Shown here: piece after piece, positions 37,050 to 53,783 of the stretch
Layout of the letters: every line of letters begins with the position of its first letter
Numbering within the stretch: the first letter of the stretch is position 1
From: Betaproteobacteria bacterium Ga0077523
GTDB lineage: Bacteria; Pseudomonadota; Gammaproteobacteria; Burkholderiales; Ga0077523
DNA length: 64,000 bases
Reading direction: 5' to 3'
Assembly (NCBI GenBank): GCA_001464695.1
Contig: LNDQ01000108.1
Coordinates: 148,090 to 212,089 of the forward strand
Translations under genes and position numbers: made by a program
Notes under the pieces: generated by a model
Seen by the model: only the letters and a program-made list of their open reading frames with translations
The model's database searches: none
What the model was told of the DNA's origin: nothing

Positions 37050-37059
37050 TCGGGCTGCT

Positions 37060-37110
37060 TGCCCCCACCCCAACCCTCCCCCGGCGAAGCCGGGGGGGAT
37101 GGGGCAGCGC
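37060..37110. repeat. G/C-rich REP element, copy 3 (single unit)
   Basis: GCCCCCACCCCAACCCTCCCCCGGCGAAGCCGGGGGGGATGGGGCAGCGC. Confidence 0.75.
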
Positions 37111-37208
37111 AGCGCCCGCTTCATTGGGAAAGGCTGTGATGGGGGCATTCCCCGGCGGACCGAACGACTAGAATCGCGTTCGTCCCATCACGCCTGTTGA
37201 CGGTCCGA

Positions 37209-37862
37209 ATGCTCTCACACATCCCCGTCGCCAAGACGCTGCTGATCCTGCTCGCGGTGGCAGCCTGGACGATCGGGGCTCACGTGGTATTCGCCACTGG
37301 CGAGCCCTCGCGTCTCGCGACCTGCTATGCCGGCGCACCCATCGCGGTCACCGCTGCCTGGCTCCTGCGTCATGCGCGCTGGAGGCAACTCTGGTTCGCA
37401 TTGATCGCAGGGGCACTGCTCGCGGCAGTGCTGATCGTGCCCGTGAATCGCACCGACGCGAGCCTCGTCTATCAGCTCCAGTACCTCGCCATGCAGGGTG
37501 CGCTGGCGGTGCTGTTCGGCCGCACGCTCCTGGCGGGACGCGAACCGCTGGTCACCCGCTTCGCACGCATCGTCCGTGGCGAGCTGCAGCCCGCCATCGA
37601 GCGCTACACGCGTTCGGTCACGCTGGCATGGACCCTCTTCTTCATTGTCATGGCATTGATCGCGGTCGTGCTGTACTCCGCCGCACCGCGCGAAACCTGG
37701 TCAGCGTTCGTGAACCTGTTGACCCTCCCGTGCGTACTCGCCATGTTCGTCGCGGAATACGCGGTGCGACGCATCCGCTTTCCGGCGCTGCAACACTCGT
37801 CGATCCTCGCGGGCGCGCGCGCGTTCCAGCGCGCCTTCACATCGCGCGAACCGCCGCCGTGA
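37209..37862 (+). CDS. integral membrane protein of aryl-polyene-type clusters (COG4648-like)
   Basis: About 5 TM helices. It is the first gene of a tightly coupled lipid/polyketide operon. An alternative TTG start lies at 37197. Confidence 0.6.
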   Translation: MLSHIPVAKTLLILLAVAAWTIGAHVVFATGEPSRLATCYAGAPIAVTAAWLLRHARWRQLWFALIAGALLAAVLIVPVNRTDASLVYQLQYLAMQGALAVLFGRTLLAGREPLVTRFARIVRGELQPAIERYTRSVTLAWTLFFIVMALIAVVLYSAAPRETWSAFVNLLTLPCVLAMFVAEYAVRRIRFPALQHSSILAGARAFQRAFTSREPPP

Positions 37863-38662
37863 GCGCCCGGCGCTGGCAGCCCTCGCCGCTCATCCTCGGC
37901 TCCTTCGGGTTGCACGCCGGTGCCGCGGCCGGCCTGATGCTGGCGCCGGGTGAGTGGCCGACCATCGCCGGCGCCATCGTCGCCAACCACGCGTTGTTGA
38001 CGGCCGCGGGGCTCTGGCCGCGCAGCCGCCTGTTGGGGCCGAACCTGCTGCGGCTGCCGGCGAGTGCCATCGCGCGCCGCGAAGTCGCCATCACCATCGA
38101 CGACGGGCCCGATCCCGAAGTCACTCCCCATGTGCTCGACCTGCTCGAGGCGCGCGCGGCGCGTGCGACCTTTTTCTGCATTGGCGCACGCGCTCTGCGC
38201 AGCCGCGACCTGTGCGCCGAGATCGTCCGTCGCGGTCATGTCGTGGAGAATCACACCCAGCACCATGCACATCACTTTTCGATGCTCGGACCCGGTGCAA
38301 TGAAACGCGAGATCGCTGCCGCCCAGGACACGCTGGAAGGTATCACCGGATCGCGACCGTGTTTCTTCCGCGCGCCGGCGGGACTGCGCAATCCGTTTCT
38401 CGAGCCAGTGCTCGCGAAGCTCGACCTGCAACTCGCCAGCTGGACCCGTCGCGGCTTCGACACGGTGCGGCGAAATCCCGACTACGTCGCCGGTCGACTA
38501 CTGGACAAACTGGCCGCAGGCGACATCCTGTTGTTGCACGACGGTCACGCGGCGCGGACCGCAGCGGACCGACCGGTGGTGCTGGAAGTCCTGCCGCGCC
38601 TGCTCGATGCCTGCGCCGGGCGCGGCCTCACGCCGGTCACCTTGCGGGAAGGCACTACGTGA
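37859..38662 (+). CDS. polysaccharide deacetylase (NodB/CE4-like) family protein
   Basis: GTGA overlap with the upstream gene. ITIDDGPDP, HTQHH and an N-terminal TM segment. Confidence 0.8.
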   Translation: MSARRWQPSPLILGSFGLHAGAAAGLMLAPGEWPTIAGAIVANHALLTAAGLWPRSRLLGPNLLRLPASAIARREVAITIDDGPDPEVTPHVLDLLEARAARATFFCIGARALRSRDLCAEIVRRGHVVENHTQHHAHHFSMLGPGAMKREIAAAQDTLEGITGSRPCFFRAPAGLRNPFLEPVLAKLDLQLASWTRRGFDTVRRNPDYVAGRLLDKLAAGDILLLHDGHAARTAADRPVVLEVLPRLLDACAGRGLTPVTLREGTT

Positions 38663-39372
38663 ACGAGCGCGAGTTTCGCGCGGCACTGGTCGACACAGCC
38701 GCCGCACCGTACCGGCAGGCAGGCCGCTTCGCGTGGCATTTCGCGCGCGGCAAGATCGGGAGCGATCCGGCGTTCGTCGGGATGCTGCGACTCGGCCTCT
38801 TCCGCCCGAACGCACGCGTCCTCGACCTCGGTTGCGGTCAGGGCCTGCTGGCATCCACTCTGGTGGCGGCCGACAGGTTGCACGCGCGCGGCGCCTGGCC
38901 CTCAGGCTGGCCGCCGGCACCGTCGGGCATTCGGGTACGCGGCATCGAACTCATGCCGCGCGACGTGGAGCGGGCCCGGCACGCACTCGGCGATGGTGCA
39001 GAAGTCGAACAAGGCGACATCCGATCGGCAGCCTTCGATGCAGTGGATGCGGTGGTCATCCTGGACGTCCTGCACTACATCCCCCGCGCGGAGCAGGAGG
39101 CGGTGCTGGTGCGCGTGCGCCATGCGCTGTCGCCGGGCGGCGTTCTGCTGTTGCGCGTGGGCGATGCCGCGGCCGGGTTGCCGTTCCGGGTGAGCCAGGG
39201 CGTCGATCGGGTCGTGACGTTCGTCCGCGGTCATCGATTGGCGCAATTGTACTGCCGGCCGTTGCGCGAGTGGATCGACGTGCTGACGGCCATCGGTTTC
39301 GAGGTGCAGGCGCTGCCCATGAGTGAGGGGACGCCGTTTGCGAATGTGTTGTTGGTGGGGCGGGTGAGATAG
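38659..39372 (+). CDS. class I SAM-dependent methyltransferase
   Basis: GTGA overlap with the upstream gene. Motif I VLDLGCGQGLL, plus DAVVILDVLHYI. Confidence 0.8.
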   Translation: MNEREFRAALVDTAAAPYRQAGRFAWHFARGKIGSDPAFVGMLRLGLFRPNARVLDLGCGQGLLASTLVAADRLHARGAWPSGWPPAPSGIRVRGIELMPRDVERARHALGDGAEVEQGDIRSAAFDAVDAVVILDVLHYIPRAEQEAVLVRVRHALSPGGVLLLRVGDAAAGLPFRVSQGVDRVVTFVRGHRLAQLYCRPLREWIDVLTAIGFEVQALPMSEGTPFANVLLVGRVR

Positions 39373-39480
39373 GCAGCGCTGCCCCCTCCCTCCGCCCTCC
39401 CCCGGCATAGCCGGGGGAGGGGACGTACACCCCTTCCCCCATCGAAGATGGGGGAAGGCTGGGATGGGGGCAGCGCCGCC
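39372..39480. repeat. G/C-rich REP element pair, copy 4
   Basis: CCCTCCCCCGGCATAGCCGGGGGAGGGG and CCCTTCCCCCATCGAAGATGGGGGAAGGCTGGGATGGGGGCAGCGCC, between convergent stops. Confidence 0.8.
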
Positions 39481-40256
39481 TACCCCTCGCGAACCGCCCG
39501 GTACTCCGAAAAGATCCCCGCCTCCACGTGACGCTCGACCCGCGTGAAGCCGACGTGCGTCAGCGTCGCGAGCACCCGCTCGGGCGGCACGCACGTTTCG
39601 ATCGTGTCCCAGTAGTAGCGCATCAGCTCGGGCGTGTCGGCATTGCGCGCCACGAACCACGACAACGCCGGCACGACGCCGCGCATGTAGGTCTTCAGCA
39701 GCCAGGTGCGCAACGCGGTCGCCGGGCGGGTGATCTCGAGCACGCACACGATGCCGCCGGGCTTCAGCACGCGCCGGAACTCGCTGAACGCTTCGGCGAG
39801 ATCGCCGATGTGGCGCAACGCGTAGCCCATGCTCACGAAGTCGGCGCACGCATCGGGCAACGGGATGGATTCGGCGCGACCCTCGAGCAGCGTCACACCT
39901 GCAGGCACGTGCGCGGCGCCGAGCATGCCGGGGCTCGGATCGACGCCCGTCACCAAGGTGGGGGCACCGACGATGCGAGCCGCCTCGCGCGACACCAGGC
40001 CGGTTCCCACACCCACGTCGACCACGCGCATGCCGGCAGCGAGTCCGGCACGCAGCAGCGCCTGTCGTCGATACCACGACCCGGTACCGAGCGCCATCAT
40101 GCGTTCGACCCGATCGTAGTCGGGAGCGGAGCGATCGAAGATGCCGCGCACCCAATCGCGCCGCTGCGTCTCGCCGTCGTAGTAGCCCTCGAGCGGCGGA
40201 TGCGGAGCATGCACCACCGTACCCTCGCCCACCGGCGGCGTGGTCGAATCAACCAT
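39480..40256 (-). CDS. class I SAM-dependent methyltransferase (UbiE/MenG-like)
   Basis: VVDVGVGTGLV motif I, plus LKPGGIVCVLE. 8-nt overlap with the upstream acyltransferase gene. Confidence 0.8.
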   Translation of the reverse strand: MVDSTTPPVGEGTVVHAPHPPLEGYYDGETQRRDWVRGIFDRSAPDYDRVERMMALGTGSWYRRQALLRAGLAAGMRVVDVGVGTGLVSREAARIVGAPTLVTGVDPSPGMLGAAHVPAGVTLLEGRAESIPLPDACADFVSMGYALRHIGDLAEAFSEFRRVLKPGGIVCVLEITRPATALRTWLLKTYMRGVVPALSWFVARNADTPELMRYYWDTIETCVPPERVLATLTHVGFTRVERHVEAGIFSEYRAVREG

Positions 40257-41109
40257 CGCGATGCACCGGTGGCGTCACGCGCATTTCATCTTCGAAGTAC
40301 TGCTCGAGCATCGCGCTGAAGGCTTTCACGTCCCTGTCCACCATGAATCGCCGGCCCAGCCGCACCCGGTAGCGGATCGGCATGGACGGCCGTCGCCACC
40401 AGGGCCAGCCTTTGCCGAGGAACGGCGCAGCCGTCTCGATGAAGACTGTCTGCACCGGCACACCTGCGCGCCGCGCGATCAGGGCGAACCCCGGCTTGAA
40501 CGGATTGACCGGCCGCCGCACCGAACGCGTACCTTCCGGAAACACCAGCAGTTGACTGCCGCGCCCGATTTCCTCGACTGCACGCTTCACCATGCTGCAC
40601 GGCGAATCGTTGCGGATATAGCCCGCCAGGCGTGCACCGCCGCCCAGCAGGACGTTGTTCCACAGGTCGGCCTTCATGATGCCGGTGATCCGCGGGAGAC
40701 GCGAGGCCACCAGCAATACGTCCAGCAGCGCCGGATGATTCGGCGCGATGACGAGGCCGCCCTCCTTCCGCAACGGATCGAGCGCGCCCAGATCGAACTC
40801 GAAACGCCCGGTCAGCCGCAGGAACCCGAGTTGCATGCGAAACGCGGCCATGATCATCCACTGCCCCACACGCGTGCCGGTGCGCCGGGGGAGCAGCCGC
40901 CACAACACCGCCGCGAGCAAGCCGGCGAAGAGCGTGATGGCGACGAAGACCGCATAGCCGGCCCAGAACGCCGCGATGTCGCCGGCTTCGCGCCATCCGC
41001 CCGGGTCGGCCGTACCGGCATCCGTCACGCCTACCCGCCAACCGCCTCCGGCCCGCGTGGTCTCGTCCTCGAGTTGCTCCCGGACCGGATCAGTGCGCGG
41101 CGGATTCAT
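40249..41109 (-). CDS. lysophospholipid (PlsC-type) acyltransferase family protein
   Basis: NHPALLD (HX4D-type block) and FPEGTRS, with an N-terminal TM segment. Confidence 0.8.
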   Translation of the reverse strand: MNPPRTDPVREQLEDETTRAGGGWRVGVTDAGTADPGGWREAGDIAAFWAGYAVFVAITLFAGLLAAVLWRLLPRRTGTRVGQWMIMAAFRMQLGFLRLTGRFEFDLGALDPLRKEGGLVIAPNHPALLDVLLVASRLPRITGIMKADLWNNVLLGGGARLAGYIRNDSPCSMVKRAVEEIGRGSQLLVFPEGTRSVRRPVNPFKPGFALIARRAGVPVQTVFIETAAPFLGKGWPWWRRPSMPIRYRVRLGRRFMVDRDVKAFSAMLEQYFEDEMRVTPPVHRDG

Positions 41110-42406
41110 GCAGCGTCTCTCCCACGATGCGCCGCCGCCGCAGCCACGCGAGGAGCGACCGCCTCGGCCTCAGCACGCAGTTGAACAGGTAGATCGCCTT
41201 GAACATCGACAACCGGAAACCGATCGGCGTGCCACGGAAGATGTCGCCCGCCAGCACCGCGAGCAACGCCTCCTTGACCCGCCAGTCGTTGCGCGGGTGC
41301 ATGAACAGCTCGCGCATCGCCGGATTCGTGACGCGATAGATGAACCACGAGAACTGCTTGGGCCCGCGCCGCATCACGCGGTCGAAGCGCCGCAGCGCCG
41401 CTGCCGCCTCCTGCGGCTGGTCGAGGCAGGTGCGCACCGTCTCGGCGCCCTCGAACGCGCTGTTCATCGCGAGGAAGACTCCGGACGAGAACACCGGATC
41501 GACGAAGGCGAAGGCATCGCCCAGCATCAGGTAGTTGTGACCGAACGAGCGCCGCGCCGAGTAGGAGTAGTTGCCGGTAGCCGTGGCCGGTTCGACCAGT
41601 TGCGCGCCTTCGAGCCGCCGGGCGAGCAGCGGGCACAGCGCGATCGTGTCGTGGAAGAAGCTGGTGACGTCCTTCTTGCGCGACTTGAGGTAGTAGGGCC
41701 AGCAGACCGCGCCGACGCTGGTGGTGCCGTCGGCGAGCGGAATGAACCAGAACCAGCCGTGATCGAACCAGAAGATGCTGATGTTGCCTTCGGCCGCGCC
41801 CGGCAGGCGTTGCGCCCCGGTGAAGTGACCGTACACGGCGGCGCTGTTGTGGCGCCGATTCTTCTCCTTCAACTGCAGCTGGTTGGCGAGCAGCGTGTCG
41901 CGCCCGGAAGCGTCGATCACGAATCGCGCCTGCCACTGCAGCAGCTGGCCGGACTCGTCCTTGGCGGTGACCAGCGCACCGCGACCTGCCGCCTCGAAGT
42001 CGATCCGGTTCGCACGCACGCCCTCCAGCAGCTCGGCGCCCTTGCGGCCGGCGTTGCGGAACAGGATGTGATCGAACTCCGAGCGCCGCACCTGGTAGGC
42101 ATAGGGGAAACTCTTGTCCCACGCGTCGGAGAAATCGAGGGTCACCGGCGCATCATGGGTCGGCGAGTTGAACTCGACGCCGTTCTTGCGCATGCCGATC
42201 GCCTCGACCTCGTCGCGCACGCCGAGCCGATCGAACAACGGAAGGTTGAGCGGCAGCAGCGACTCGCCGATGTGAAAGCGCGGATGCCGTGTCTTCTCCA
42301 GGACGACCACATGGCGGCCCTGCTGGGCGAGCAACGCGGCAATGGTGGACCCGGCCGGACCGCCGCCCACGACCAGCACCTCACACGACTTCACCGGATC
42401 CGACAT
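41090..42406 (-). CDS. FAD-dependent halogenase-like oxidoreductase
   Basis: GGGPAGS dinucleotide fold at residues 14-20, HPRFHIGESLLP, GWFWFIP (encoded at 41738-41758, a WxWxIP-type motif) and FVDPVFSSGV. Start MSDPV (ATG 42404-42406); an alternative GTG lies at 42433. Confidence 0.75.
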   Translation of the reverse strand: MSDPVKSCEVLVVGGGPAGSTIAALLAQQGRHVVVLEKTRHPRFHIGESLLPLNLPLFDRLGVRDEVEAIGMRKNGVEFNSPTHDAPVTLDFSDAWDKSFPYAYQVRRSEFDHILFRNAGRKGAELLEGVRANRIDFEAAGRGALVTAKDESGQLLQWQARFVIDASGRDTLLANQLQLKEKNRRHNSAAVYGHFTGAQRLPGAAEGNISIFWFDHGWFWFIPLADGTTSVGAVCWPYYLKSRKKDVTSFFHDTIALCPLLARRLEGAQLVEPATATGNYSYSARRSFGHNYLMLGDAFAFVDPVFSSGVFLAMNSAFEGAETVRTCLDQPQEAAAALRRFDRVMRRGPKQFSWFIYRVTNPAMRELFMHPRNDWRVKEALLAVLAGDIFRGTPIGFRLSMFKAIYLFNCVLRPRRSLLAWLRRRRIVGETLHESAAH

Positions 42407-42589
42407 GGGTTCGCTCTCTCGAGGCACCGGCACGACTCCGAACGCACCCGGTCGATGCCAGTGCGCTGCATTCTAGTGCACTTCCCGCCATCGATCGACC
42501 ATGGGAGCGGCAGCGGGCCTTGTTAGAATGACCGGAATGACGATCGTACCAGCGCCGCACCGCGGCCCGGCCGCCGTGCCGGTGTCCCC

Positions 42590-43309
42590 ATGAAGCGCGC
42601 CCTCGTGACGGGCGCCAGCGGAGGTGTCGGTGCCGCGATCTGCCGAACGCTGGCAACCGAGGGTCTGCACGTGATCGCACACGCGAACGCCCATCCTGAC
42701 GCGGCCGCCGCGCTCGCCGGCGAGATCGTCGCGGCCGGCGGCTCGGCGGAGACAGTCTGTTTCGACGTGACCGACGCGCAAGCAACGCGCGCTGCCCTCG
42801 AAGCGCTGATCGCCCGCGGTGCGATCCAGGTGCTGGTGAACAACGCCGGCCTGCACGAGGATGCGCCGCTGCCCGGCATGACCGGGGAGCAGTGGTCGCG
42901 GGTGATCGACGTCAGCCTGAACGGCTTCTTCAACGTGACCCAGCCGCTGCTGCTGCCGATGATCCGCACCCGCTGGGGCCGCATCATCAGCATCTCGTCG
43001 GTGAGTGCCCTGATCGGCAATCGCGGGCAGGCGAACTACGCGGCGGCCAAGGCCGGGCTGCATGGCGCCTCGCGCTCGCTGGCGCTGGAAGTGGCCACGC
43101 GCGGCATCACCGCCAACATCGTGGCCCCGGGCGTGATCGACGCCGGCACGACGGCCACCGCATTCTCCGAGGAGCGCGTGAAATCCGTCGTGCCGATGCA
43201 GCGCACCGGCACGCCCGACGAAGTGGCGGCGCTGGTCCGGTTCCTCGCGTCCGATGAGGCGGGGTACATCACCGGGCAGGTGATCGCGGTATCGGGCGGG
43301 CTCGGCTAG
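42590..43309 (+). CDS. fabG: 3-oxoacyl-ACP reductase (SDR family)
   Basis: TGASGGVG, NNAG and S...YAAAK catalytic triad spacing; PG motif. Confidence 0.85.
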   Translation: MKRALVTGASGGVGAAICRTLATEGLHVIAHANAHPDAAAALAGEIVAAGGSAETVCFDVTDAQATRAALEALIARGAIQVLVNNAGLHEDAPLPGMTGEQWSRVIDVSLNGFFNVTQPLLLPMIRTRWGRIISISSVSALIGNRGQANYAAAKAGLHGASRSLALEVATRGITANIVAPGVIDAGTTATAFSEERVKSVVPMQRTGTPDEVAALVRFLASDEAGYITGQVIAVSGGLG

Positions 43310-43325
43310 TCGCCGCTCCAGACCC

Positions 43326-44498
43326 GTGACCCTCCCTCCCTCCAGCGGTACGCAGCGAGCCCTGGACGAAGTGTTGCCCGCCGAGCTGCTCGGCGCCTTT
43401 GATGATCGCTTCATTCGCTCGTGCGAGTTCGTCGAGGAGTACGTGCACCGGCTGACGCTTCAGGTGTTCCGCGACACCGGACTCGAGGAAGCCTGTGCGC
43501 AACCGGTCACCGTCGACGAAGCGGTCCGGCGCGCCGGACTGGCCCCCGACATCGCGCTCGTACCTTGCACCTGGATCCTCCGCACCCTGGCCGCGCGCGG
43601 CTGGTTGGAGCGGGTGGACACGGCACGCTTTCGCGCCTCGGCGGTACCCCGGCTCGATCCGGTTGAACTCGCCGCCGCCCAGAACGCCCACGACCCGGCA
43701 TGCCTCCCCACCTACCGTATTGCCGCGCTGGCCGCCGAATCGTATCCAAGCGTGCTGCAGGGCCACACGACCGGCGAGGATGCGCTCTTCGCACCGGACC
43801 ACATCGGCACCTGGCTCGAGTACTTCTCCAACGCCAACCCGCTGTACGCCATCGCGAACACCGTCGGCGCGATCGCGGCCGAGCAGGCGCTGCCCGCCGA
43901 GGGCGGCACCGTCCTGGAACTGGGCGGCGGCCTGGGCAGCGGCGCCGAGGCGTTGCTCGCACGCCTCGATACGGCCGGTCATGGCAAGTCGCTCGCCGCC
44001 TATCGGTTCACCGAGATCGTGCCGGCGTTCCTGCGACGCGCGCGCAAATCTCTGCCCGACTATCGCGCCGGACTACCCCTGTCGTTCACCTGGCTCGACA
44101 TCGACGCGCCGTTCGCCAAGGCTGGCATCGAACCGGCTTCGTGCTCCCTGGTTTACGGCGTGAACGTCATGCACGTGGCGAAGGATCTCGCGGCAACCCT
44201 GGCGGAGGTCCGCCTGGCCCTCAGCGACGGCGGCGCGCTGGTGCTGGGTGAATGCGTCCGCCCGTTCGCGGACCGGCCCATCTACGTCGAATTCGTCTTC
44301 AATCTGCTCGCGTCATTCCGCGCGCCGCTGCTGGTGCCCGCATGGCGGCCCAACGGCGGCTTCCTCACGCCCGAGCAATGGTGCGCCGCGTTGGCGGCGA
44401 ACGGCTTCGACCAGGTCACCATCCTGCCCGACATCGTGGCGCTGCGCGATGCCTACCCTTCGTTCGTGGTCGCCGCCATCACCGCCCGCTGCCAATGA
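43326..44498 (+). CDS. SAM-dependent methyltransferase with N-terminal dimerisation/winged-helix-like domain (O-methyltransferase-like)
   Basis: GTG start. VLELGGGLGSGAEALL motif I, and a size and layout like small-molecule O-methyltransferases. Confidence 0.7.
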   Translation: MTLPPSSGTQRALDEVLPAELLGAFDDRFIRSCEFVEEYVHRLTLQVFRDTGLEEACAQPVTVDEAVRRAGLAPDIALVPCTWILRTLAARGWLERVDTARFRASAVPRLDPVELAAAQNAHDPACLPTYRIAALAAESYPSVLQGHTTGEDALFAPDHIGTWLEYFSNANPLYAIANTVGAIAAEQALPAEGGTVLELGGGLGSGAEALLARLDTAGHGKSLAAYRFTEIVPAFLRRARKSLPDYRAGLPLSFTWLDIDAPFAKAGIEPASCSLVYGVNVMHVAKDLAATLAEVRLALSDGGALVLGECVRPFADRPIYVEFVFNLLASFRAPLLVPAWRPNGGFLTPEQWCAALAANGFDQVTILPDIVALRDAYPSFVVAAITARCQ

Positions 44499-45268: not shown

Positions 45269-45274
45269 TGCCGC

Positions 45275-45625: not shown

Positions 45626-45655
45626 GCGTGCCGCCGGAGCGCCGCTGAGCTGACG

Positions 45656-45816
45656 GCTGAGGTGATGTGACGTCCCCCCCGAAAGGCCTCGCGGCCTCTC
45701 CCCCCAGGGGGCCAGCCCGCTTGTGGGCTGAGGTCGGACACAGACAGTCCCTGCGGACTGTCTGTGCCTACCGAAGGCCATCGGCCTCCGGCCGATGGCG
45801 GCCCGGCGCGGGCTGA
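45656..45816 (+). repeat. approx. 155-bp structured dispersed repeat, copy 2
   Basis: It aligns by eye to 16384-16537 at roughly nine positions in ten, in the same orientation. It lies between the ACP stop and the AMP-ligase start inside the operon. Confidence 0.85.
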
Positions 45817-45857
45817 GTGAACCGTCGGCCCGGGCGCCGACGGGTAGACTGCGCCCC

Positions 45858-47216: not shown

Positions 47217-48082
47217 GTGCCGCCACGCAAGCGTGGGCCGCACGGCCGGAGCGCAGCAACACCCTCGCCCTGCGCATCATCGTCTGGGTCGCACTGCATC
47301 TGGGCCGCACCGCTGCGCGCGTGCTGCTGCATCCGATCTCCTGCTACTTCCTGCTGTTCTCGACCGCGTCGCGCCGTGCATCCCGCGCCTGGCTCGAACA
47401 GGCGTTGGCGCGCCCGCCAACCTGGGGCGATCGATACCGTCACTACTTCACCTTCGCCGCCACCATCCTCGATCGCGTGTTCCTGCTGAACGACCGTTTC
47501 GAGCTGTTCCAGCTCGAACTGCACGGCACGGACGCGATGCGTGAAGTGCACGCCGGGCACACCGGCTGCTTCCTGCTCGGGGCCCATTTCGGCAGCTTCG
47601 AAGTGACGCGCGCGGTTGGGCGGATGCAGCCCGGGCTCGAAGTGAGCCTGCTCATGTACGAGGCGAACGCAGCACGCATCGGCGCGATCATCCGCACCAT
47701 CAACCCGGCGCTCGGCACCAAGGTCATCGGCCTCGGCTCCGTGGATTCCATGCTGCGGGTGCGCGCATGCCTCGACGCCGGCGAGTTCGTCGGCATGCTC
47801 GCCGATCGCCGCCTGGGCGACGAGGAGAGCACGCCCGTCACGTTCTTCGGCCGGCCCGCGCGTTTGCCGGCGGGACCGTTCCGTCTCGCGTGCCTGCTGC
47901 GCCGACCGGTCGTGCTGATGTTCGGCATCTACCGCGGCGGCAACCGCTACGAGGTGCACTACGAGCGCATGCCGATGGACGGCGATGCCGCCCGTCTCGC
48001 GGCGCGATACGCCGAACGGCTCGAACACCACGCGCGCAGTGCGCCCTACAACTGGTTCAACTTCCATGATTTCTGGGAGTAG
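47213..48082 (+). CDS. LpxL/HtrB-like (lipid A biosynthesis) acyltransferase family protein
   Basis: GTGA overlap with the upstream gene. GAHFGSFE (HX4E/D-type block), an N-terminal TM segment, and family-typical length. Confidence 0.7.
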   Translation: MSAATQAWAARPERSNTLALRIIVWVALHLGRTAARVLLHPISCYFLLFSTASRRASRAWLEQALARPPTWGDRYRHYFTFAATILDRVFLLNDRFELFQLELHGTDAMREVHAGHTGCFLLGAHFGSFEVTRAVGRMQPGLEVSLLMYEANAARIGAIIRTINPALGTKVIGLGSVDSMLRVRACLDAGEFVGMLADRRLGDEESTPVTFFGRPARLPAGPFRLACLLRRPVVLMFGIYRGGNRYEVHYERMPMDGDAARLAARYAERLEHHARSAPYNWFNFHDFWE

Positions 48083-48092
48083 TTCTGGGAGG

Positions 48093-48686
48093 ATGCGCGC
48101 GGCGCTCGCCGGCATCGTCGCGGCGCTGCTGACAGTCTGTGGTGGCGCCTTCGGCGAAGAAAGCAGCGCCGGTCCGTGGGACCTCCCTCAGCTCATGCGT
48201 GAACTCGCGAGCGTGAACACGGCGCGCGCGCGCTTCACCGAGAAGCGCTTCCTGAAGATGCTCGACCGGCCGATCGAATCGTCCGGCACGCTGGCCTTCG
48301 AAGCCCCCGCACACCTGGAGAAGCTCACCTTGCTGCCGAAGCGCGAGCTGCTGCGCGTGGAACAGGACAAGGTCACTCTGGAAGTCGGCGCGAAGCCGAA
48401 GCGGCGCATCCTGTCTCTGTCCGAACATCCGCCGTTGCGCGCGTTCGTCGAGAGTATCCGCGCCACGCTGGCGGGCGACCAGGCGGCACTGGAGCGGTTC
48501 TACCGGGTGCAGTTCAGCGGCGACGCCGAGCGCTGGCGACTCACGCTGCAGCCTGCCGATGCGAAGTCGAGGTCGTTCATCCGCGAGATCCGCATCAGCG
48601 GCAAGCGCAACGCGGTGACCGGCGTCGAAGTGGATCAGGCCGACGGCGATCGCTCGGTGATGTCGATGGTGCCCGATGATTCGTAG
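48093..48686 (+). CDS. LolA-like outer-membrane lipoprotein carrier family protein
   Basis: Signal peptide MRAALAGIVAALLTVCGGAFG, a GGGAGG RBS, ARARFTEKRFLKMLDRPIESSGTLAF typical of the LolA fold, and a position directly upstream of the MMPL exporter. Confidence 0.7.
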   Translation: MRAALAGIVAALLTVCGGAFGEESSAGPWDLPQLMRELASVNTARARFTEKRFLKMLDRPIESSGTLAFEAPAHLEKLTLLPKRELLRVEQDKVTLEVGAKPKRRILSLSEHPPLRAFVESIRATLAGDQAALERFYRVQFSGDAERWRLTLQPADAKSRSFIREIRISGKRNAVTGVEVDQADGDRSVMSMVPDDS

Positions 48687-50997
48687 TCGTATCGCCATCG
48701 CGCTGTGGCTCGCGGTGCTGGCGGCCGCCGCGGTGGTCATCGCCGGCGCCCGTTTTTCGACGGACCTCTCGGCGTTCCTCCCCAGGCAGCCGACCGCGGC
48801 CCAGCAGTTGCTGGTGGACGAACTGCGCGATGGCGTGGTGTCGAAGCTGATACTGGTCAGCGTGGCCGGTGCACCGCCCGACACCCTGGCCGCCGCAAGC
48901 CGCGCGCTGGCGGCGCGCCTGCGCACGGATCGGCGCTTCGCCTCGGTCGACAACGGCGACGAGGCGCAGCTCGAACACGACCGCGCGTTCGTGTTCGAGC
49001 ATCGCTACCTGCTGAGTCCAGCGGTGGATGCCGCGCACTTCACCGTGAAGGCGTTGCGCATCGCCCTCGACGAATCGCTCGAACTGCTCGGGTCGCCGGC
49101 CGGGATGATGGCGAAGTCGCTCGTCCCGGCCGATCCCACCGGGGAAGTGTTGCGATTGATCGACCGCATGGCCGGCATGTCCCCACCGGCAACGCACGAG
49201 GGTGTCTGGGTCAATCCCGAAGCCACGGAGGCACTGCTGGTGCTGCAGACCCGAGCTCCGGGGTTCGACATCGATGCGCAGGAACAGGCCCTCGCGAGCA
49301 TCCGCGCCGCCTTCGCCGAAGTGCAACGGAGCCCCGGCGCGGGCACGCTGAAACTCGCGTCGACCGGCCCGGGCGTGTTCGCCGTTCAGACCCGCGCGGC
49401 GATCAAGCGCGATGCCGTGCGCTATTCGACGCTGGCGACCATCTTCATCGCAGCGTTGCTGCTGACGATCTTCCGCTCGCCGCGAGTGCTGATTCTCGGA
49501 TTGCTGCCCGTGGCGAGTGGTGCCGCCGTCGGCATCGCGGCCGTCGCACTGCACTTCGGCGAAGTGCACGGCATCACCCTCGGCTTTGGTGCCACGCTGA
49601 TCGGCGAGTCGGTCGACTATGCGATCTATCTGTTCATGCAGACCGACCCGCGGCGCGGTGCCGCCGGCACGCTCGCCCGTATCTGGCCCACACTGCGGCT
49701 CGGCGTCGCGACCTCCATCTGCGGCTTCTCGGCGATGCTGCTGTCCGGTTTTCCCGGGCTCGCGCAACTGGGGCTGTTCTCGATCGCCGGCATTGCCACC
49801 GCTGCCCTGGTGACGCGCTTCGTCCTGCCGGTGCTGCTCCCGCCGGATTTCGCCGTCACCGGTGTCGAGCATATCGCCGCACGGGTCCGCTCGGCGTTCT
49901 CGAGAGCCCGAGTGCTATGGCCGGTGCTGGTACTCGCCGTGATCGGAGCCATCGCCGTCTGGAGCATGCGTGACCAGCGCTGGAGCGATGAACTTGCGAG
50001 CCTGAGTCCGATCTCGGTCGCCCAGCAGCAGCTCGATCAGCGCCTGCGCGATGCACTGGGTGCTGCCGATGTCCGCCATGTGGTGGTGGCGCGTGCGGCG
50101 AGTTCCGATCAGGCACTGGCACTCGCGGAGCGCGTCGGAGCGGCGCTCGATGGCGCCGTGAGCGCCGACGTGATCGACGGCTACGAATCGCCGGCGCGCA
50201 TTCTGCCCTCGGCAGCGACGCAGATGCGCCGCCGCGAAAGCCTCCCCGAAGCTCCGGTCCTGCGCGCCCGCATCGCCGAAGCTGCCCGCGGCACCCCGTT
50301 TCGCGCGGGCACGTTCGAACCCTTTGTCAACGCCGCGCAGCGAACACGGACCGGACCGCTGCTCGAGCGCGAGTCGTTCGGCGGCACGAAACTGGGTGTC
50401 CGGCTCGACGCGTTGCTGGTGCGGCGTGATAACGCGTGGTACGCAATGCTGCCGCTGTCGGGCGTCGGGGACGTCGCGAACCTGAAGCGCGCGCTGGCCC
50501 CGTTGTACGACGCCCAAGTGGTGCTGCTCGACACCAAGACCGAGACGGACGCGATATACGGTACCTATCGCCGCGAGGCCATCTCGTTGTCGCTGCTCGG
50601 TGCGGTCGCCATCGTCGTGCTGCTGGCAGCGGCGATGCGCAGCGCACGTCGCGCGCTGGCCGTCTGCCTGCCACTCGCGGCAGCCGTGCTGGTCACTTCC
50701 GGTCTGCTGCTGGCGCTCGGGCCGCCGCTCACCATGTTCCATCTGGTCGGCATGCTGCTGGTCGTGGCCGTGGGCTCCAATTACGCGCTGTTCTTCGACG
50801 GCTCCCTGGCGGGCGGTTCGAACGATCGCACGGCGCTGTCACTCGCTCTGGCGAACATCACCACGGTCATCGGCTTCGGCATGCTCGGCTTCTCGAGCGT
50901 GCCGGTGCTGTCGGCCATCGGCAGTACCGTCGGCATCGGCGCCGCGCTGAGCCTGATCTTCGCCGCGGCGCTGGCACCACGCCCGCGCCCGGGCTGA
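48676..50997 (+). CDS. MMPL/RND-superfamily exporter
   Basis: 773 aa with two 6-TM bundles, each preceded by a large periplasmic loop. GESVDYAIY-type motif. Confidence 0.85.
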   Translation: MIRSRIAIALWLAVLAAAAVVIAGARFSTDLSAFLPRQPTAAQQLLVDELRDGVVSKLILVSVAGAPPDTLAAASRALAARLRTDRRFASVDNGDEAQLEHDRAFVFEHRYLLSPAVDAAHFTVKALRIALDESLELLGSPAGMMAKSLVPADPTGEVLRLIDRMAGMSPPATHEGVWVNPEATEALLVLQTRAPGFDIDAQEQALASIRAAFAEVQRSPGAGTLKLASTGPGVFAVQTRAAIKRDAVRYSTLATIFIAALLLTIFRSPRVLILGLLPVASGAAVGIAAVALHFGEVHGITLGFGATLIGESVDYAIYLFMQTDPRRGAAGTLARIWPTLRLGVATSICGFSAMLLSGFPGLAQLGLFSIAGIATAALVTRFVLPVLLPPDFAVTGVEHIAARVRSAFSRARVLWPVLVLAVIGAIAVWSMRDQRWSDELASLSPISVAQQQLDQRLRDALGAADVRHVVVARAASSDQALALAERVGAALDGAVSADVIDGYESPARILPSAATQMRRRESLPEAPVLRARIAEAARGTPFRAGTFEPFVNAAQRTRTGPLLERESFGGTKLGVRLDALLVRRDNAWYAMLPLSGVGDVANLKRALAPLYDAQVVLLDTKTETDAIYGTYRREAISLSLLGAVAIVVLLAAAMRSARRALAVCLPLAAAVLVTSGLLLALGPPLTMFHLVGMLLVVAVGSNYALFFDGSLAGGSNDRTALSLALANITTVIGFGMLGFSSVPVLSAIGSTVGIGAALSLIFAAALAPRPRPG

Positions 50998-51650
50998 TGG
51001 AGACCATTGCGGACTGCGCGGGCGACCCGCGCGAGCGCACGTTGCTGGTGCTGCTGCCCCCCGCGTTCGGGACGCCGGGCGACTTCATCGAGCACGGGTT
51101 CGTCACGACGATCCGCGAACGGAAACTGCCAGTCGACGTGATCGCGGCCGGTGCGATCGCCGATCACTATCTCGATCAGTCCGTCGTGGCGCGATTGCAC
51201 GCAGAAGTAATCGCGCCAGCGCGCGCACGCGGTTATGGGCGCCTGTGGCTGGGCGGCATTTCCATCGGCGGCTTCGGCAGCCTGTTGTATCGGGCGCGGC
51301 ACGACGCGGTGGATGGACTGCTGTTGCTCGCACCCTACCTCGGTTCGCGACCGGTGTTGAACGAGGTGGTGCGGGCGGGCGGGCTCGCGCGCTGGCAACC
51401 GGACGCGGATGCGCCGCGCGACCACGAGCGGGAGTTGCTCACATGGTTGCAGGGCGCGTTGACGGATTCCGACGTGCGGGCACGGATCTTCGTGGGGTAT
51501 GGGATCGACGATCGCTTCGCGCCTTCGATCGAGTTGCTGGCGAACGCGCTGCCGCAGGAGCAGGTGGTACGCGCGGCCGGAGGGCACGATTGGGGGACGT
51601 GGGCGGGTTTGTGGCGGGAGGTGATCGGGAGGTGGTGGTATTCGAAGTAG
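50997..51650 (+). CDS. alpha/beta hydrolase (possible thioesterase/esterase)
   Basis: The start shares one nucleotide with the MMPL stop (TGATG). GISIGG nucleophile elbow (GxSxG), with later D and H candidates. Confidence 0.65.
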   Translation: METIADCAGDPRERTLLVLLPPAFGTPGDFIEHGFVTTIRERKLPVDVIAAGAIADHYLDQSVVARLHAEVIAPARARGYGRLWLGGISIGGFGSLLYRARHDAVDGLLLLAPYLGSRPVLNEVVRAGGLARWQPDADAPRDHERELLTWLQGALTDSDVRARIFVGYGIDDRFAPSIELLANALPQEQVVRAAGGHDWGTWAGLWREVIGRWWYSK

Positions 51651-51651
51651 G

Positions 51652-51742
51652 GCAGCCCCCATCCCGACCTTCCCCCACCGGAGGTGGGGGAAGGGGTGTA
51701 CGGCTCCCTTACCCGGCTTCGCCGGGGGGATGGGGGCAACAA
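51652..51742. repeat. G/C-rich REP element pair, copy 5
   Basis: CCTTCCCCCACCGGAGGTGGGGGAAGG and CCCTTACCCGGCTTCGCCGGGGGGATGGGGGC, inside the biosynthetic cluster. Confidence 0.8.
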
Positions 51743-51801
51743 CGCCACTCCCCACCCACCTGAGCTAACATCCCCACCCCACACCCGGCTACCCGCGAAG
51801 T

Positions 51802-52989
51802 TTGGAACCACTCGCCCTCTCCGCCTGTTCGATCGTCACGTGCCTCGGTGCCGGACGGGAAGCGAATGTGGCTGCGCTGCGTGAACGGCGATCGGGTCTG
51901 GCGCGTTGTGCCTTCGAGACCGTCGAACTCGACACCTACGTCGGCGAAGTCGCCGGCGTCGACCAGGTCGCCATGCCGGCCAACCTGCGCGACTACGACT
52001 GCCGCAACAACCGCCTCGCCCAGTTCGCGTTGGACAGCGACGGATTCGTCGAACACGCGCGCGCAGCGCGCGCACGCTACGGCGCCGAGCGCATCGGCGT
52101 GTTCCTGGGCACCAGCACGGCCGGCATCCTCGAAACTGAGCTTGCGTATCGGCGCCGCGATGCCGAAGGACGGTTGCCGTCGGACTTCCACTATCGCGAA
52201 ACCCACAACACCTTTTCGCTGGCGGACTACGTAGCCCACGCCCTCGAACTCACCGGCCCTGCCGTCGTCGTGTCGGCGGCGTGTGCATCGAGCGCCAAGG
52301 TCTTCGGCAATGCCGCGCGGGCCATGGCCACCGGTCTGTGCGACGCGGCGATCGTGGGCGGCGTCGATACGTTGTGCCTCACTACGTTGTACGGCTTTCA
52401 CTCGCTCGGCCTGACGTCAACGCGCCCGTGCCGGCCCTTCGATGCGGCGCGCGATGGAATCTCCATCTCCGAAGGTGCAGCGTTCGTACTGCTCGAACGC
52501 ACATCGGAGGCGATGTCCCGGGTGAGCTTGCTTGGCGTCGGCGAAAGCAGCGACGCACACCACATGTCCACCCCGCACCCGGAAGGCCTGGGAGCGCGCC
52601 TGGCGATGCAAGGCGCGCTGACCAGCGCCGGTCTCACTGCCGATCGTGTCGGCTACGTCAACCTGCATGGCACTGCCAGCCGTACCAACGACTCTTCCGA
52701 GGCAGCGGCTATCGCTCACATCTTCGGTCATCAGGTACCTTGCAGTTCCACCAAGGGACTCACCGGTCATGCACTGGGTGCAGCCGGTGCGATCGAGGCG
52801 TTGCTCGCCGCCTTCGCTCTCGAGGAAGGCTTCCTTCCTGCCGGGGCGCATACCGAAGCGCTGGACCCGGCGCTGAACGTGGACTACCTGTTGGCATCCC
52901 GCCCCGGCACAGCCTCCGTCGCGATGAGCAACTCCTTCGGCTTCGGCGGTGCCAACTGCGCGTTGCTCTTCGGCCTCGGCAAACGATGA
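51802..52989 (+). CDS. beta-ketoacyl-ACP synthase (KS, FabB/FabF-like)
   Basis: Active-site Cys in VVSAACASS, His residues in SDAHHMSTP and NLHGTAS, and C-terminal SNSFGFGGAN. The start is uncertain (TTG at 51802). Confidence 0.85.
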   Translation: MEPLALSACSIVTCLGAGREANVAALRERRSGLARCAFETVELDTYVGEVAGVDQVAMPANLRDYDCRNNRLAQFALDSDGFVEHARAARARYGAERIGVFLGTSTAGILETELAYRRRDAEGRLPSDFHYRETHNTFSLADYVAHALELTGPAVVVSAACASSAKVFGNAARAMATGLCDAAIVGGVDTLCLTTLYGFHSLGLTSTRPCRPFDAARDGISISEGAAFVLLERTSEAMSRVSLLGVGESSDAHHMSTPHPEGLGARLAMQGALTSAGLTADRVGYVNLHGTASRTNDSSEAAAIAHIFGHQVPCSSTKGLTGHALGAAGAIEALLAAFALEEGFLPAGAHTEALDPALNVDYLLASRPGTASVAMSNSFGFGGANCALLFGLGKR

Positions 52990-53783
52990 TGAAAGCCTTC
53001 ATCGAAGGCATCGGCCTGCTCGGTCCGGGACTGCCCGGCTGGAGCACGAGCCGCTCCATCCTCGCTGGCGCGAAACCGCACACCGCGGAACCCATGACGA
53101 TCCCGACGAGCGACTGGCTCCCGCCTGCCGAACGACGCCGCACCGGCGTCAGCGTGCGCCTGGCACTCGCCACGGGCCGTGAAGCATGCGAACACGCCCA
53201 GCGCGACCCGCGCAGTCTCGCCACCGTCTTCACCTCCTCCGGCGGTGATGGTGACAACCAGCACGTCATCTGCGAGTCGCTCGCGACGGCAGCGCGGGAG
53301 GTGTCGCCCACGAGGTTCCACAACTCGGTGCACAACGCCCCCGCCGGCTACTGGGGCGTGGCGACCGGCGCGATGGCGAGCTCGACATCGCTGTGCGCCT
53401 TCGACTGGAGTTTCGGCGCCGGGCTCATCGAGGCGTTGACGTGGATTGCCTGCGAGCGGCAACCGATGCTGCTCATGGCCTACGACGCCCCGTACCCCGA
53501 GCCGATGCGGGCCGTGCGGGCGATCTCGTTCCCGTTCGGCATGGCGCTGATGCTCGCGCCGGAGCGCAGCGCTCGCACCATCACGCAACTCGCGGTCGAC
53601 CTGGAGCCCTCGTCGCGCACGACCGCGGCCGGACTTCCCGAGGGTCTGAAGCAGCTCCACGACGCGATCCCGGCGGCCCGCAGCCTGCCGTTGCTGTGTG
53701 CGCTGGCGCGCGAGCAGCGCGCCGAAGTGCCCGTCGACTACCTCGACGGCCGCCAGCTCCGCGCCACCGTCACACCGCCATGA
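52986..53783 (+). CDS. KS-related chain-length-factor-like protein (no active-site Cys)
   Basis: ATGA overlap with the KS gene. KS-fold remnants (FHNSVHNAPAGYW) but no CxSS catalytic motif. This resembles the small KS partner of aryl-polyene clusters. Confidence 0.7.
   Translation: MMKAFIEGIGLLGPGLPGWSTSRSILAGAKPHTAEPMTIPTSDWLPPAERRRTGVSVRLALATGREACEHAQRDPRSLATVFTSSGGDGDNQHVICESLATAAREVSPTRFHNSVHNAPAGYWGVATGAMASSTSLCAFDWSFGAGLIEALTWIACERQPMLLMAYDAPYPEPMRAVRAISFPFGMALMLAPERSARTITQLAVDLEPSSRTTAAGLPEGLKQLHDAIPAARSLPLLCALAREQRAEVPVDYLDGRQLRATVTPP

Follow-up and report, generated by a model that had tools for sequence, protein, structure and literature searches.

Among the biosynthetic gene clusters of Gram-negative bacteria, those for aryl polyenes (APEs) are considered the most widespread family; they shield cells from light and oxidative stress. 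This report concerns a 64,000-nt stretch of DNA (the window) from contig LNDQ01000108.1 of Betaproteobacteria bacterium Ga0077523, an uncultured member of the Burkholderiales from a drinking-water activated-carbon filter, and in particular the genes at window positions 37209-53783. These genes very probably form a functional cluster for the biosynthesis and export of an APE pigment lipid, of the betaproteobacterial, xanthomonadin/arcuflavin-like type.

The APE family is defined by clustered genes for a ketosynthase (KS; ApeO/R), a chain-length factor (CLF; ApeC), an acyl carrier protein (ACP; ApeE/F), dehydratases (DH; ApeI/P), a ketoreductase (KR; ApeQ) and an RND exporter (ApeM) (bioRxiv 10.1101/2020.12.19.423268). 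In E. coli the starter, 4-hydroxybenzoate (4-HBA), comes from UbiC and the cluster carries no starter enzyme of its own, while the Xenorhabdus system needs an initiating KS of the ApeR type in vitro (PMC8253772; bioRxiv 10.1101/2020.12.19.423268). The chromophore of the Xenorhabdus APE lipids sits on a GalNAc-phosphate-glycerol backbone made by ApeD and ApeJ, and their export is assigned to ApeM, ApeL and ApeG (bioRxiv 10.1101/2020.12.19.423268). The pigments of Xanthomonas and Lysobacter are membrane-bound and photoprotective, and for Lysobacter the logic of a KS working with a half-CLF has been shown genetically (PMC3691225, PMC6859482). In Azoarcus the product, arcuflavin, is a hybrid of a xanthomonadin and a dialkylresorcinol (DAR); ArcT activates 3-hydroxybenzoate (3-HBA) in vitro, and the chorismatase XanB2 (arcB) is encoded apart from the ligase/ACP module, at another locus (PMC3949708).

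The G+C content of the window is about 67%, so that raw lists of open reading frames (ORFs) are uninformative, and genes were called by phase analysis of third-position GC (GC3) with domains assigned by Pfam and NCBIfam. Exactly 17 genes were found in 37209-53783, all with intact ORFs and coding-type GC3, as had been proposed in a preliminary description of the locus. Independent public gene calls give the same genes, with the same sizes, for metagenome contigs whose DNA is 99.9-100% identical (JGI 3300002461, from a drinking-water plant sample, and the activated-carbon metagenome PRJNA301005). Five long ORFs (34839-37049(+), 37954-39372(+), 44453-45286(-), 50781-51755(-) and 52281-53783(+)) were weighed as alternative reading frames and resolved by GC3 phase and Pfam. 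All of the domains previously listed were recovered by Pfam or NCBIfam, the membrane protein being recognised through its homology to ApeG. The alpha/beta hydrolase gene at 50997-51650 had been left unnamed, and the interval described leaves out a glycosyltransferase gene of the cluster at 61076-61852. The 17 genes are given the working names g1-g17, numbered from left to right:

37209-37862, plus strand: g1, polytopic membrane protein, ApeG/COG4648-like (ApeG homology)
37859-38662, plus strand: g2, membrane-anchored CE4 (NodB-fold) de-N-acetylase (Polysacc_deac_1, E 1e-25; NodB TIGR04243 97 bits, below cutoff)
38659-39372, plus strand: g3, class-I S-adenosylmethionine methyltransferase (MT) in the position of arcM (Methyltransf_25/23/12/11)
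39480-40256, minus strand: g4, UbiE/MenG-like MT (Ubie_methyltran, E 3e-25; NF001244 130 bits, below cutoff)
40249-41109, minus strand: g5, PlsC-type lysophospholipid acyltransferase, ApeD-like (PF01553, E 5e-17; 29% identity to ApeD, E 6e-24; HX4D at 125)
41090-42406, minus strand: g6, flavin-dependent halogenase (Trp_halogenase, E 1e-30; CmlS-like)
42590-43309, plus strand: g7, FabG-type KR, ApeQ-like (adh_short, E 3e-50; NF004200 FabG 341 bits, above cutoff)
43326-44498, plus strand: g8, putative stand-alone C-methyltransferase (C-MT) of the polyketide synthase (PKS) type (PDB sequence search; AlphaFold2 (AF2) model with Foldseek)
44495-45268, plus strand: g9, fused ApeI-like and ApeP-like double hot-dog DH (Pfam, PDB, ApeI and ApeP matches)
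45350-45625, plus strand: g10, ACP, ApeE-like, Ser46 (PP-binding; NF006617 (PRK09184) 123 bits, above cutoff)
45858-47216, plus strand: g11, aryl acid:ACP AMP-ligase in the position of ApeH/ArcT/XanA2 (AMP-binding)
47213-48082, plus strand: g12, LpxL-type acyltransferase, C-terminal half of ApeJ (Lip_A_acyltrans, E 8e-16; HX4E at 125)
48093-48686, plus strand: g13, LolA-like periplasmic carrier, ApeL-like (LolA_3, E 9e-19; LolA2_flexi below cutoff; ApeL, E 1e-9)
48676-50997, plus strand: g14, MMPL/RND exporter, ApeM-like (MMPL; HAE3 and HpnN below cutoff; ApeM over 724 aa, E 2e-23)
50997-51650, plus strand: g15, small alpha/beta-hydrolase, Ser89-Asp172-His197 (no Pfam match above cutoff; homologues, AF2 and Foldseek)
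51802-52989, plus strand: g16, elongating KS, ApeO-like, Cys161/His289/His323 (ketoacyl-synt N and C; NF006618 (PRK09185) 524 bits, cutoff 407)
52986-53783, plus strand: g17, truncated Cys-less KS partner/CLF, ApeC-like (Ketoacyl-synt_2, E 8e-28)
61076-61852, minus strand: satellite GT2 glycosyltransferase, orthologue of the N-terminal half of ApeJ (Glycos_transf_2), 7.3 kb outside 37209-53783

Genes g1-g3 (37209-39372) and g7-g17 (42590-53783) lie on the plus strand and g4-g6 (39480-42406) on the minus strand, so the locus comprises at least three transcription units. The earlier statement that most gene junctions are ATGA/GTGA overlaps was not upheld: 4-nt overlaps of this kind occur at five of the 16 junctions (g1/g2, g2/g3, g8/g9, g11/g12 and g16/g17), and overlap of any sort at nine. 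Both flanks are unrelated to the cluster, with an iron alcohol dehydrogenase at about 35901-37049 (4-hydroxybutyrate dehydrogenase model, 585 bits) and a Na+/H+ exchanger on the 5' side, and a convergent gene of the beta-lactamase fold on the 3' side. Alignments and motifs indicate that catalytic residues are intact in the KS, KR, DH, ACP, ligase, both acyltransferases, halogenase, CE4 protein, g8 and g15.

The KS, g16, is 43% identical to ApeO (E 1e-79) and 34% identical to ApeR, and in the PDB it matches 7F28_B and 6QSP_A (ApeO) with E 1e-70. Its partner g17 matches ApeC (E 8e-13; PDB 6QSP_B, E 5e-12) and carries ASSTSL (Ser/Ala) where a KS has the catalytic Cys. A single KS, a truncated CLF-like partner and a single ACP (g10), with no ApeR, is the arrangement of Lysobacter ORF17/16. 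The ACP shows an LDSID motif and 43% identity to ApeE (E 5e-17); the KR, g7, is 46% identical to ApeQ (E 2e-67) with the motifs TGASGGVG and YAAAK (YxxxK). In the DH, g9, a FabA/ApeI-like domain (residues 8-69, GHFPG motif at 16) is followed by an ApeP-like domain (residues 115-250); the N half corresponds to PDB 3ESI and 6QSR_A and the C half to 6QSR_B. The ligase, g11, has TSGSTGEP and a C-terminal GK, and its start was set at 45858 because its homologues are of 452 aa. It is 27% identical to ApeH over 437 aa (E 9e-25) and 45-57% identical to the ligases of APE loci in Burkholderiales and elsewhere. It has thousands of homologues, and the named ones are mostly from Burkholderiales metagenome-assembled genomes (MAGs).

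The proteins of the window were compared with the ApeA-R locus of E. coli CFT073 (blastp, tblastn). Eleven of the 17 match Ape counterparts, with E values from 7e-8 to 1e-79, and when the satellite GT2 is included, homologues of ApeC, D, E, G, H, I, J (both halves), L, M, O, P and Q are present. All core genes of the family were found (g16, g17, g10, g9, g7 and g14), both by this direct comparison and by comparison with the PDB structures of ApeO, ApeC, ApeI and ApeP (6QSP, 6QSR, 7F28), which bears out the aryl-polyene assignment first made from the sequence. The trio of aryl acid:ACP ligase, ACP and COG4648 protein is represented by g11, g10 and g1, the last having moved to the 5' end of the cluster in the window; related loci keep the order ACP-g1-ligase. 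ApeA, ApeB, ApeF (the second ACP), ApeK and ApeN gave no match in the window by blastp or tblastn, and ApeR matched only g16. The locus thus lacks the set of ApeR, two ACPs, ApeK (4HBT thioesterase), ApeN (DUF3261) and ApeB (an MT of the O-methyltransferase (OMT) fold) that marks the enterobacterial type. Compared with the clusters of E. coli and Xenorhabdus doucetiae, ApeI and ApeP are fused here, ApeJ is split into GT2 and acyltransferase genes, and a halogenase, a CE4 protein, three unrelated MTs and an alpha/beta-hydrolase have been added; the absence of an in-cluster starter synthase and the logic of lipid anchor and export are common to all.

Related loci in other genomes were given working labels (L007, L087 and so on; L092 is that of Burkholderia sp. 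YI23). Among the matches listed, loci from species-representative genomes, which include Burkholderiales MAGs, Xenophilus and Nitrosomonas oligotropha, have counterparts of 10-12 of the 17 genes, with amino acid identities of 40-65%, and the best genome match is 54-57% identical. A thioredoxin (TrxC) encoded in the window falls into one >=90% cluster with a protein labelled 'Burkholderiales bacterium', in keeping with the host taxon. A core gene order recurs: ACP, g1, ligase, LpxL, LolA, MMPL, (g15), CE4, MT, KS, CLF, DH, KR. The cultured Burkholderia sp. YI23 carries 15 of the 17 genes and the GT2 at 42-68% amino acid identity (BYI23_D004410-D004580, on the 1.95-Mb replicon byi_1p), and similar clusters occur in Caballeronia insecticola and related chromids; the YI23 locus is known by annotation only. 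The match of 15 proteins to this one cluster, together with the 11 matches to E. coli Ape proteins, excludes chance. Identities to YI23 are 59% for the halogenase, 63% for the CE4 protein, 45% for the g3-like MT, 59% for the UbiE-like MT, 60% for the KS, 49% each for the CLF, ligase and MMPL protein, and 68% for the GT2. YI23 differs in lacking g8 and g15, in possessing MipA, in holding the GT2 inside the cluster and in a rearranged gene order and strand blocks, and no XanB2 is annotated nearby. Another difference lies in the ApeI-like hot-dog domain, which is joined to ApeP here and to the C-terminus of the ligase in YI23 (566 aa; L092 14007-15707). Ligase fusions of this kind (550-650 aa) are found in most related clusters (L007, L008, L014, L016, L017 and YI23), and alignments suggest that the dehydratase domain is shuffled between partners: the ligase, ApeP in the clade of the window, and MT3 plus ApeP in a protein labelled P0184. 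Ligases of Stenotrophomonas and Pseudoxanthomonas, at about 30% identity, belong to a different APE type with two ACPs, an aromatic ammonia-lyase and a 4HBT thioesterase.

By published annotation, the arc genes of Azoarcus sp. BH72 include a series also seen here, with MT, polysaccharide deacetylase, hypothetical protein, exporter, LolA, acyltransferase, DH, AMP-ligase, membrane protein and ACP, as well as a KS, a protein with an N-terminal KS domain, a dehydratase, a reductase, a PlsC-type acyltransferase, a glycosyltransferase and a halogenase (PMC3949708). In Azoarcus these genes are split over two loci that also encode XanB2, MipA and a two-component system, with dar genes elsewhere, whereas in the window all but the GT2 are in one locus, XanB2 and dar genes are absent from the 64 kb, and two further MTs and the hydrolase are present. 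The Xanthomonas pig cluster and that of Lysobacter enzymogenes OH11, compared by description, share a KS with a truncated Cys-less CLF, a single ACP, a FabG-type KR, hot-dog DHs, LolA, RND and GT2 proteins (PMC3691225, PMC6859482), and the pig cluster also has a halogenase. XanB2 lies beside the ACP in those clusters and is missing here, and the Lysobacter cluster has no identified MT, in contrast to the three MTs, CE4 protein and alpha/beta-hydrolase of the window. Overall, the locus appears to resemble the arcuflavin/Burkholderia type more than the pig cluster as described. The earlier placement of the locus in the xanthomonadin branch and not the enterobacterial one agrees with its single ACP, the lack of ApeR, ApeK, ApeN and ApeB, the intact halogenase motifs, the arc-like gene content and the synteny with Burkholderiales.

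The halogenase g6 retains the motifs of flavin-dependent halogenases (GGGPAG and WFWFIP, with Lys74 aligned to the Lys of CndH) and is 59-63% identical to the halogenases of L007, L008 and YI23. In the PDB it matches 5BUK, CndH (3E1T), ChlB4, PltA and CmlS (E 3e-57 to 9e-44); the first four, its closest solved relatives, we take to be enzymes acting on carrier-protein-tethered substrates. Three separate MTs had been noted previously and thought more than xanthomonadin chemistry needs. The count is correct. Homologues of g3 (45-57% identity) always adjoin the CE4 gene in L009, L014, L015 and YI23, as g3 adjoins g2 and as the MT gene arcM adjoins the deacetylase gene arcN in Azoarcus (PMC3949708). 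An MT like g4 is found within the YI23 cluster, annotated as demethylmenaquinone methyltransferase (59% identity), and also in L010 and L030; UbiE-like MTs are carried by the YI23, Nitrosomonas and Nitrospira loci. On these comparisons g3 and g4 are standard for the Burkholderiales cluster type, and g8 is the unusual one.

The sequence of g8 matches PKS C-MTs in the PDB (CurJ C-MT, 7e-19; DisA, 1.5e-14; LovB CMeT, 8e-11). The top Foldseek matches of its AF2 model (predicted local distance difference test, pLDDT, 89.6) are all PKS C-MTs, namely CurJ (template modelling (TM) score 0.77-0.79 over about 390 columns), AprA MT2, DszA, the citrinin CMeT, the trans-acting CalH and PsoF; TM scores to small-molecule OMTs are about 0.4-0.5. 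Like the C-MTs of CurJ (5THY), DszA/DisA (6CCA), citrinin (5MPT) and CalH (7DMB), g8 has the full-length fold (TM 0.6-0.79), with an N-terminal helical subdomain, a class-I core and a His-Glu dyad, and it differs from them in being encoded on its own within a type II APE cluster and not as a domain of a modular or iterative type I PKS, with 16-23% sequence identity. Residues H283 and E309 do not vary across 21 homologues. In PKS C-MTs this dyad serves methylation of the alpha-carbon of a beta-ketoacyl-ACP (PMC9821293), and its presence in g8 therefore suggests alpha-methylation of a beta-ketoacyl-ACP intermediate. A possible equivalence of g8 with E. coli ApeB was rejected, as there is no sequence similarity and ApeB has the OMT fold (Methyltransf_2), unlike g3, g4 and g8.

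The g8 family comprises 176 clusters (50% identity clustering, E<=1e-30), mostly of proteins of about 390 aa, and the search also hit one 6,765-aa megasynthase through an internal domain. No g8 homologue occurs in any of the approximately 40 genome loci among the matches listed. Homologues of g8 and g9 are adjacent in L087, another complete APE cluster, and in P0184 the two occur naturally fused as one protein of 683 aa (MT3+ApeI+ApeP). It is conceivable, although we hold it only tentatively, that g8 and g9 form a module adding methyl branches to a type II APE chain and that, once halogenation, the two other methylations and an amino-sugar anchor stripped of its N-acetyl group are added, the product is a chain-methylated, halogenated APE lipid whose starter is supplied wholly in trans. 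No description of such a chemotype was found in the literature searched; nor was a paper tying APE clusters to a PKS-type C-MT, which is a weak negative. In L088 (Burkholderiales MAG GCA_036555615.1, DATBKZ010000034.1) a g8-family MT gene lies beside an LpxL-type acyltransferase gene, about 8 kb from the ACP-membrane protein-ligase trio and with hrpA between them. The hrpA gene of the window (11452-15477) is about 22 kb upstream of the cluster, and the parallel may be what is left of an ancestral gene order common to the two.

Genes for a lipid anchor and for export make up much of the remainder. The CE4 protein g2 is 63% identical to the in-cluster deacetylase of YI23, its nearest PDB relatives are chitin and peptidoglycan GlcNAc deacetylases (E 4e-21), and it shows all of the DD, HxxxH, RxPxG and LxH motifs (IDDGP80, HTQHH132, RAPAG171, LLHD225). 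Given the GalNAc-phosphate-glycerol anchor of Xenorhabdus, it is proposed that g2 would de-N-acetylate an anchor hexosamine. The acyltransferase g12 corresponds to ApeJ residues 243-550 (30% identity, E 4e-40), and ApeJ residues 1-241 correspond to the satellite GT2 (38% identity, E 2e-51), which also shares 68% identity with the GT2 inside the clusters of L007 and YI23 and 42% with a Pseudoxanthomonas APE GT2. From these identities, the satellite gene is taken to provide the otherwise missing function of the ApeJ N half from a displaced position. Within its operon it shows translational coupling to a P-type cation ATPase gene (61831-63981(-)) and is followed by a gene for a PNPOx-like flavoprotein (60390-60998(-)). 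The flavoprotein was considered as the equivalent of a 'flavoredoxin' encoded in the vicinity of the YI23 cluster, a candidate halogenase reductase, and was discarded when no similarity was found in any locus. The membrane protein g1 is 35% identical to ApeG over 78 aa (E 7e-8) and 43-50% identical to the protein encoded between the ACP and ligase genes of L087 and YI23; Pfam gives a weak IspA match, as it does for the gene in the ApeG position of Pseudoxanthomonas. Homologues of the hydrolase g15 carry Esterase/Hydrolase_4 domains, with S89 (GxSxG), D172 and H197 invariant, and the nearest Foldseek relatives of its AF2 model (pLDDT 93.8) are feruloyl/cinnamoyl esterases and monoacylglycerol lipases. 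L009 and L031 likewise have a g15 homologue after the MMPL gene. With ApeK missing, a role for g15 in release, transfer or proofreading in its place may reasonably be proposed.

Pfam scans of all called genes, and of public Pfam-annotated calls of the same DNA, revealed no chorismatase (XanB2), RidA-domain protein, UbiC or ammonia-lyase in the 64 kb, and a tblastn search of the window for ammonia-lyase was also negative; the absence of XanB2 is based on the Pfam scans of the called genes. Nor was XanB2 or another starter synthase seen in the approximately 20-30 kb around the L007, L087 and YI23 clusters. The preliminary description had likewise seen neither a chorismatase nor an ammonia-lyase, and its conclusion that the aryl starter must come from elsewhere was right. 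Since neither enzyme is encoded in the 64 kb or in the inspected related loci, supply of the starter is probably in trans, and the unlinked XanB2 of Azoarcus and the UbiC supply of E. coli make such an arrangement normal. A 338-aa ORF in a Lysobacter locus (L051) that was considered as XanB2 proved to be a threonine aldolase-type lyase. Xanthomonadaceae loci retrieved with the ligase profile were considered as a source of XanB2 and proved to be of the other APE type, with two ACPs, an ammonia-lyase and a 4HBT thioesterase.

A pathway can be proposed in which enzyme identities come from homology, and the order of steps and the substrates are conjectural. Hydroxybenzoate would be made outside the cluster, either as 4-HBA by UbiC or as 3-/4-HBA by an unlinked XanB2, and would be adenylated by g11 and loaded directly onto the ACP g10. 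The KS/CLF pair g16/g17 would extend it iteratively with malonyl units, each cycle including reduction by g7 and dehydration by g9, to give a conjugated polyene. Halogenation by g6 would probably take place on the ACP-tethered aryl group, in the manner of its closest structural relatives. Of the MTs, g3 would likely act in O-methylation (as arcM), g4 in ring C-methylation (UbiE-like) and g8 in trans-acting C-methylation at the alpha-carbon of the beta-ketoacyl-ACP intermediate. Transfer of the chromophore to a glycerolipid/amino-sugar anchor would be the task of g5, g12 and the satellite GT2, with g2 removing the N-acetyl group of the anchor hexosamine and g15 serving in release or proofreading in place of ApeK. 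Finally, g14, g13 and g1 would move the lipid to the outer membrane, where it could protect against light and oxidative stress.

Some observations weigh against assignment of the locus to an APE pathway of the xanthomonadin/arcuflavin-like type. The organism is uncultured and the cluster is known here from its genes alone; no initiating KS of the ApeR type was found in the window, though xanthomonadin-type clusters also do without one; an outer-membrane component of the MipA or ApeN type was not found in the window by tblastn; and the GT2 sits in another operon, away from the cluster. The substrates and regiochemistry suggested for the three MTs, the halogenase, the CE4 protein and g15 follow from family resemblance only. 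As no source of an aryl starter is present in the 64 kb, its aryl nature is deduced solely from the homology of g11 to ligases such as ApeH (27%). A non-aryl system resembling a type II fatty acid synthase or PKS, in which the ligase loaded an aliphatic or other acid and the product was a conjugated or methyl-branched fatty acyl lipid for outer-membrane remodelling, would account for this absence; all-trans conjugated fatty acyl chains can also be products of APE machinery, and the locus does include a PKS-type C-MT and lipid acyltransferases. Such a system is nonetheless very unlikely, since g11 is by position and sequence an orthologue of the ApeH/ArcT-type aryl acid:ACP ligases, the halogenase family works on aromatic or pyrrolic rings, and the characterised members in E. 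coli, Xenorhabdus, Lysobacter and Azoarcus make aryl polyenes.

If the product is an aryl polyene, the choice lies among subtypes. That the cluster is of the enterobacterial/Vibrio type, making a simple methylated 4-hydroxyphenyl polyene lipid, is highly improbable: the 11 proteins with Ape homologues and the shared starter logic (4-HBA from UbiC, no in-cluster enzyme) would fit, but ApeR, ApeF, ApeK, ApeN, ApeA and ApeB have no separate homologue in the window, g11 is much closer to ligases of arc-type loci (45-57%) than to ApeH (27%), the halogenase, CE4 protein and UbiE-like MT are extras common to the Burkholderia/Azoarcus type, and Xanthomonadaceae loci with two ACPs and an ammonia-lyase are only about 30% identical. 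An APE-DAR ester, as in arcuflavin or flexirubin-type hybrids, with the DAR genes elsewhere in the genome, is suggested by the resemblance in gene content to the arc loci of Azoarcus, which make a xanthomonadin-DAR hybrid and whose dar genes are unlinked (PMC3949708). We regard this as improbable, as no gene of the DarA/DarB (KAS-III-like) type was found in the 64 kb or in the inspected Burkholderiales neighbourhoods, and the PlsC, LpxL and GT2 genes point to a glycerolipid/sugar anchor as in APE lipids; candidates for DarA/DarB upstream of the L014 and L016 clusters proved to encode a two-component pair of LytS and LytTR, comparable to arcW/arcX. A xanthomonadin cluster proper, of the Xanthomonas type, making a 3-HBA-primed, brominated aryl octaene with xanB2 outside the window, fits the descriptions in its halogenase, single ACP, KS with half-CLF, GT2 and LolA/RND export, and Azoarcus provides a precedent for a XanB2 gene unlinked from the ligase/ACP module (PMC3949708). 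It is nonetheless unlikely: XanB2 is missing both from the 64 kb and from the surroundings of the L007, L087 and YI23 clusters, the host belongs to the Burkholderiales and not the Xanthomonadales, the extra C-MT, UbiE-like MT, CE4 protein and hydrolase predict other tailoring, and the comparison with the pig cluster is one of published descriptions.

With close counterparts in cultured Burkholderia and Caballeronia, the cluster belongs to a well-known and very widespread class, and because APE clusters are so common, another member in a Burkholderiales bacterium of a drinking-water biofilter is expected and not surprising. Its non-standard features are g8 with the fused ApeI-ApeP protein, the esterase-like hydrolase, the displaced GT2, the lack of MipA/ApeN-type components and the repeats in its long gaps. 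The betaproteobacterial cluster type appears to work without an in-cluster XanB2, which bears on the question of starter supply. The recurrent stand-alone C-MT, paired or fused with a dehydratase, sets apart a subgroup whose aryl polyenes may be methyl-branched. Given the GalNAc-phosphoglycerol APE lipids of Xenorhabdus, the CE4, GT2 and two acyltransferase genes provide a concrete hypothesis for the lipid anchor, and the gene set as a whole makes a multiply methylated, possibly chain-branched, halogenated aryl polyene a testable prediction.

Long gaps occur in the cluster region at 37050-37208 (5'), 39373-39479, 45626-45857 and 51651-51801. All but the ACP-ligase gap are filled by G/C-rich palindromic repeats resembling repetitive extragenic palindromes (REP-like; CCCCCGGCnnnGCCGGGGG cores), at 37057-37098, 39378-39483 and 51651-51728, and the family is also found at two other intergenic sites (21025-21131 and 35751-35879). 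In the JGI assembly, which represents the same population, there is a break at 51727, within a REP-like repeat. Two further intergenic features lie within the cluster:

45660-45817, no strand assigned: multi-hairpin repeat element of about 155 nt in the ACP-ligase gap
42407-42589, no strand assigned: divergent intergenic region between g6 and g7, with two opposed TAGAAT boxes (42470 minus, 42524 plus)

The multi-hairpin element is 92% identical to a copy 29 kb away (16385-16537), with at least one compensatory stem change, and has an RNA fold z-score of -5.4. Rfam gave no match anywhere in the window, this element included. It may be an element resembling a miniature inverted-repeat transposable element, or a transcriptional attenuator. 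The hexamer TAGAAT occurs four times in the 64 kb, at 37169-37174(+), 42470-42475(-), 42524-42529(+) and 15435-15440(-). Three of these are located 35-64 nt upstream of g1, g6 and g7, and the fourth is in the divergent hrpA/eamA region; we infer that they are -10 promoter boxes. Scans of the window with sigma-70 and terminator consensus models gave nothing above shuffled sequences.

Elsewhere in the window, an operon at 568-9149 encodes a short SecA-like ATPase (654 aa), a 773-aa PqqD/Peptidase_M50/HlyD_3 protein and a 644-aa GAF+HlyD protein. Beside these genes are those of a sigma factor of the ECF type and another HlyD protein, and a 26-nt tandem repeat (three copies) is found at 2822-2903. 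The operon may represent a dedicated peptide-export or processing system. Three adjacent genes at 16488-21020 specify secreted PEP-CTERM proteins (phytase-like, endonuclease/exonuclease/phosphatase and choice-of-anchor I), which implies an exosortase system in the organism. They are followed at 21139-27227(-) by a complete operon for a multisubunit cation/proton antiporter of the Mrp/Pha type (MrpA-like, 927 aa; MrpC, MrpD, MrpF and MrpG). A third family of short repeats (CTCCCTTCTCCCTCCGGGAGAAGGGTCGGGGATGAGGG) is present at 55568-55605, 55671-55708 and 63020-63057, the first two copies being 103 nt apart and upstream of a BNR/sortilin-like gene.

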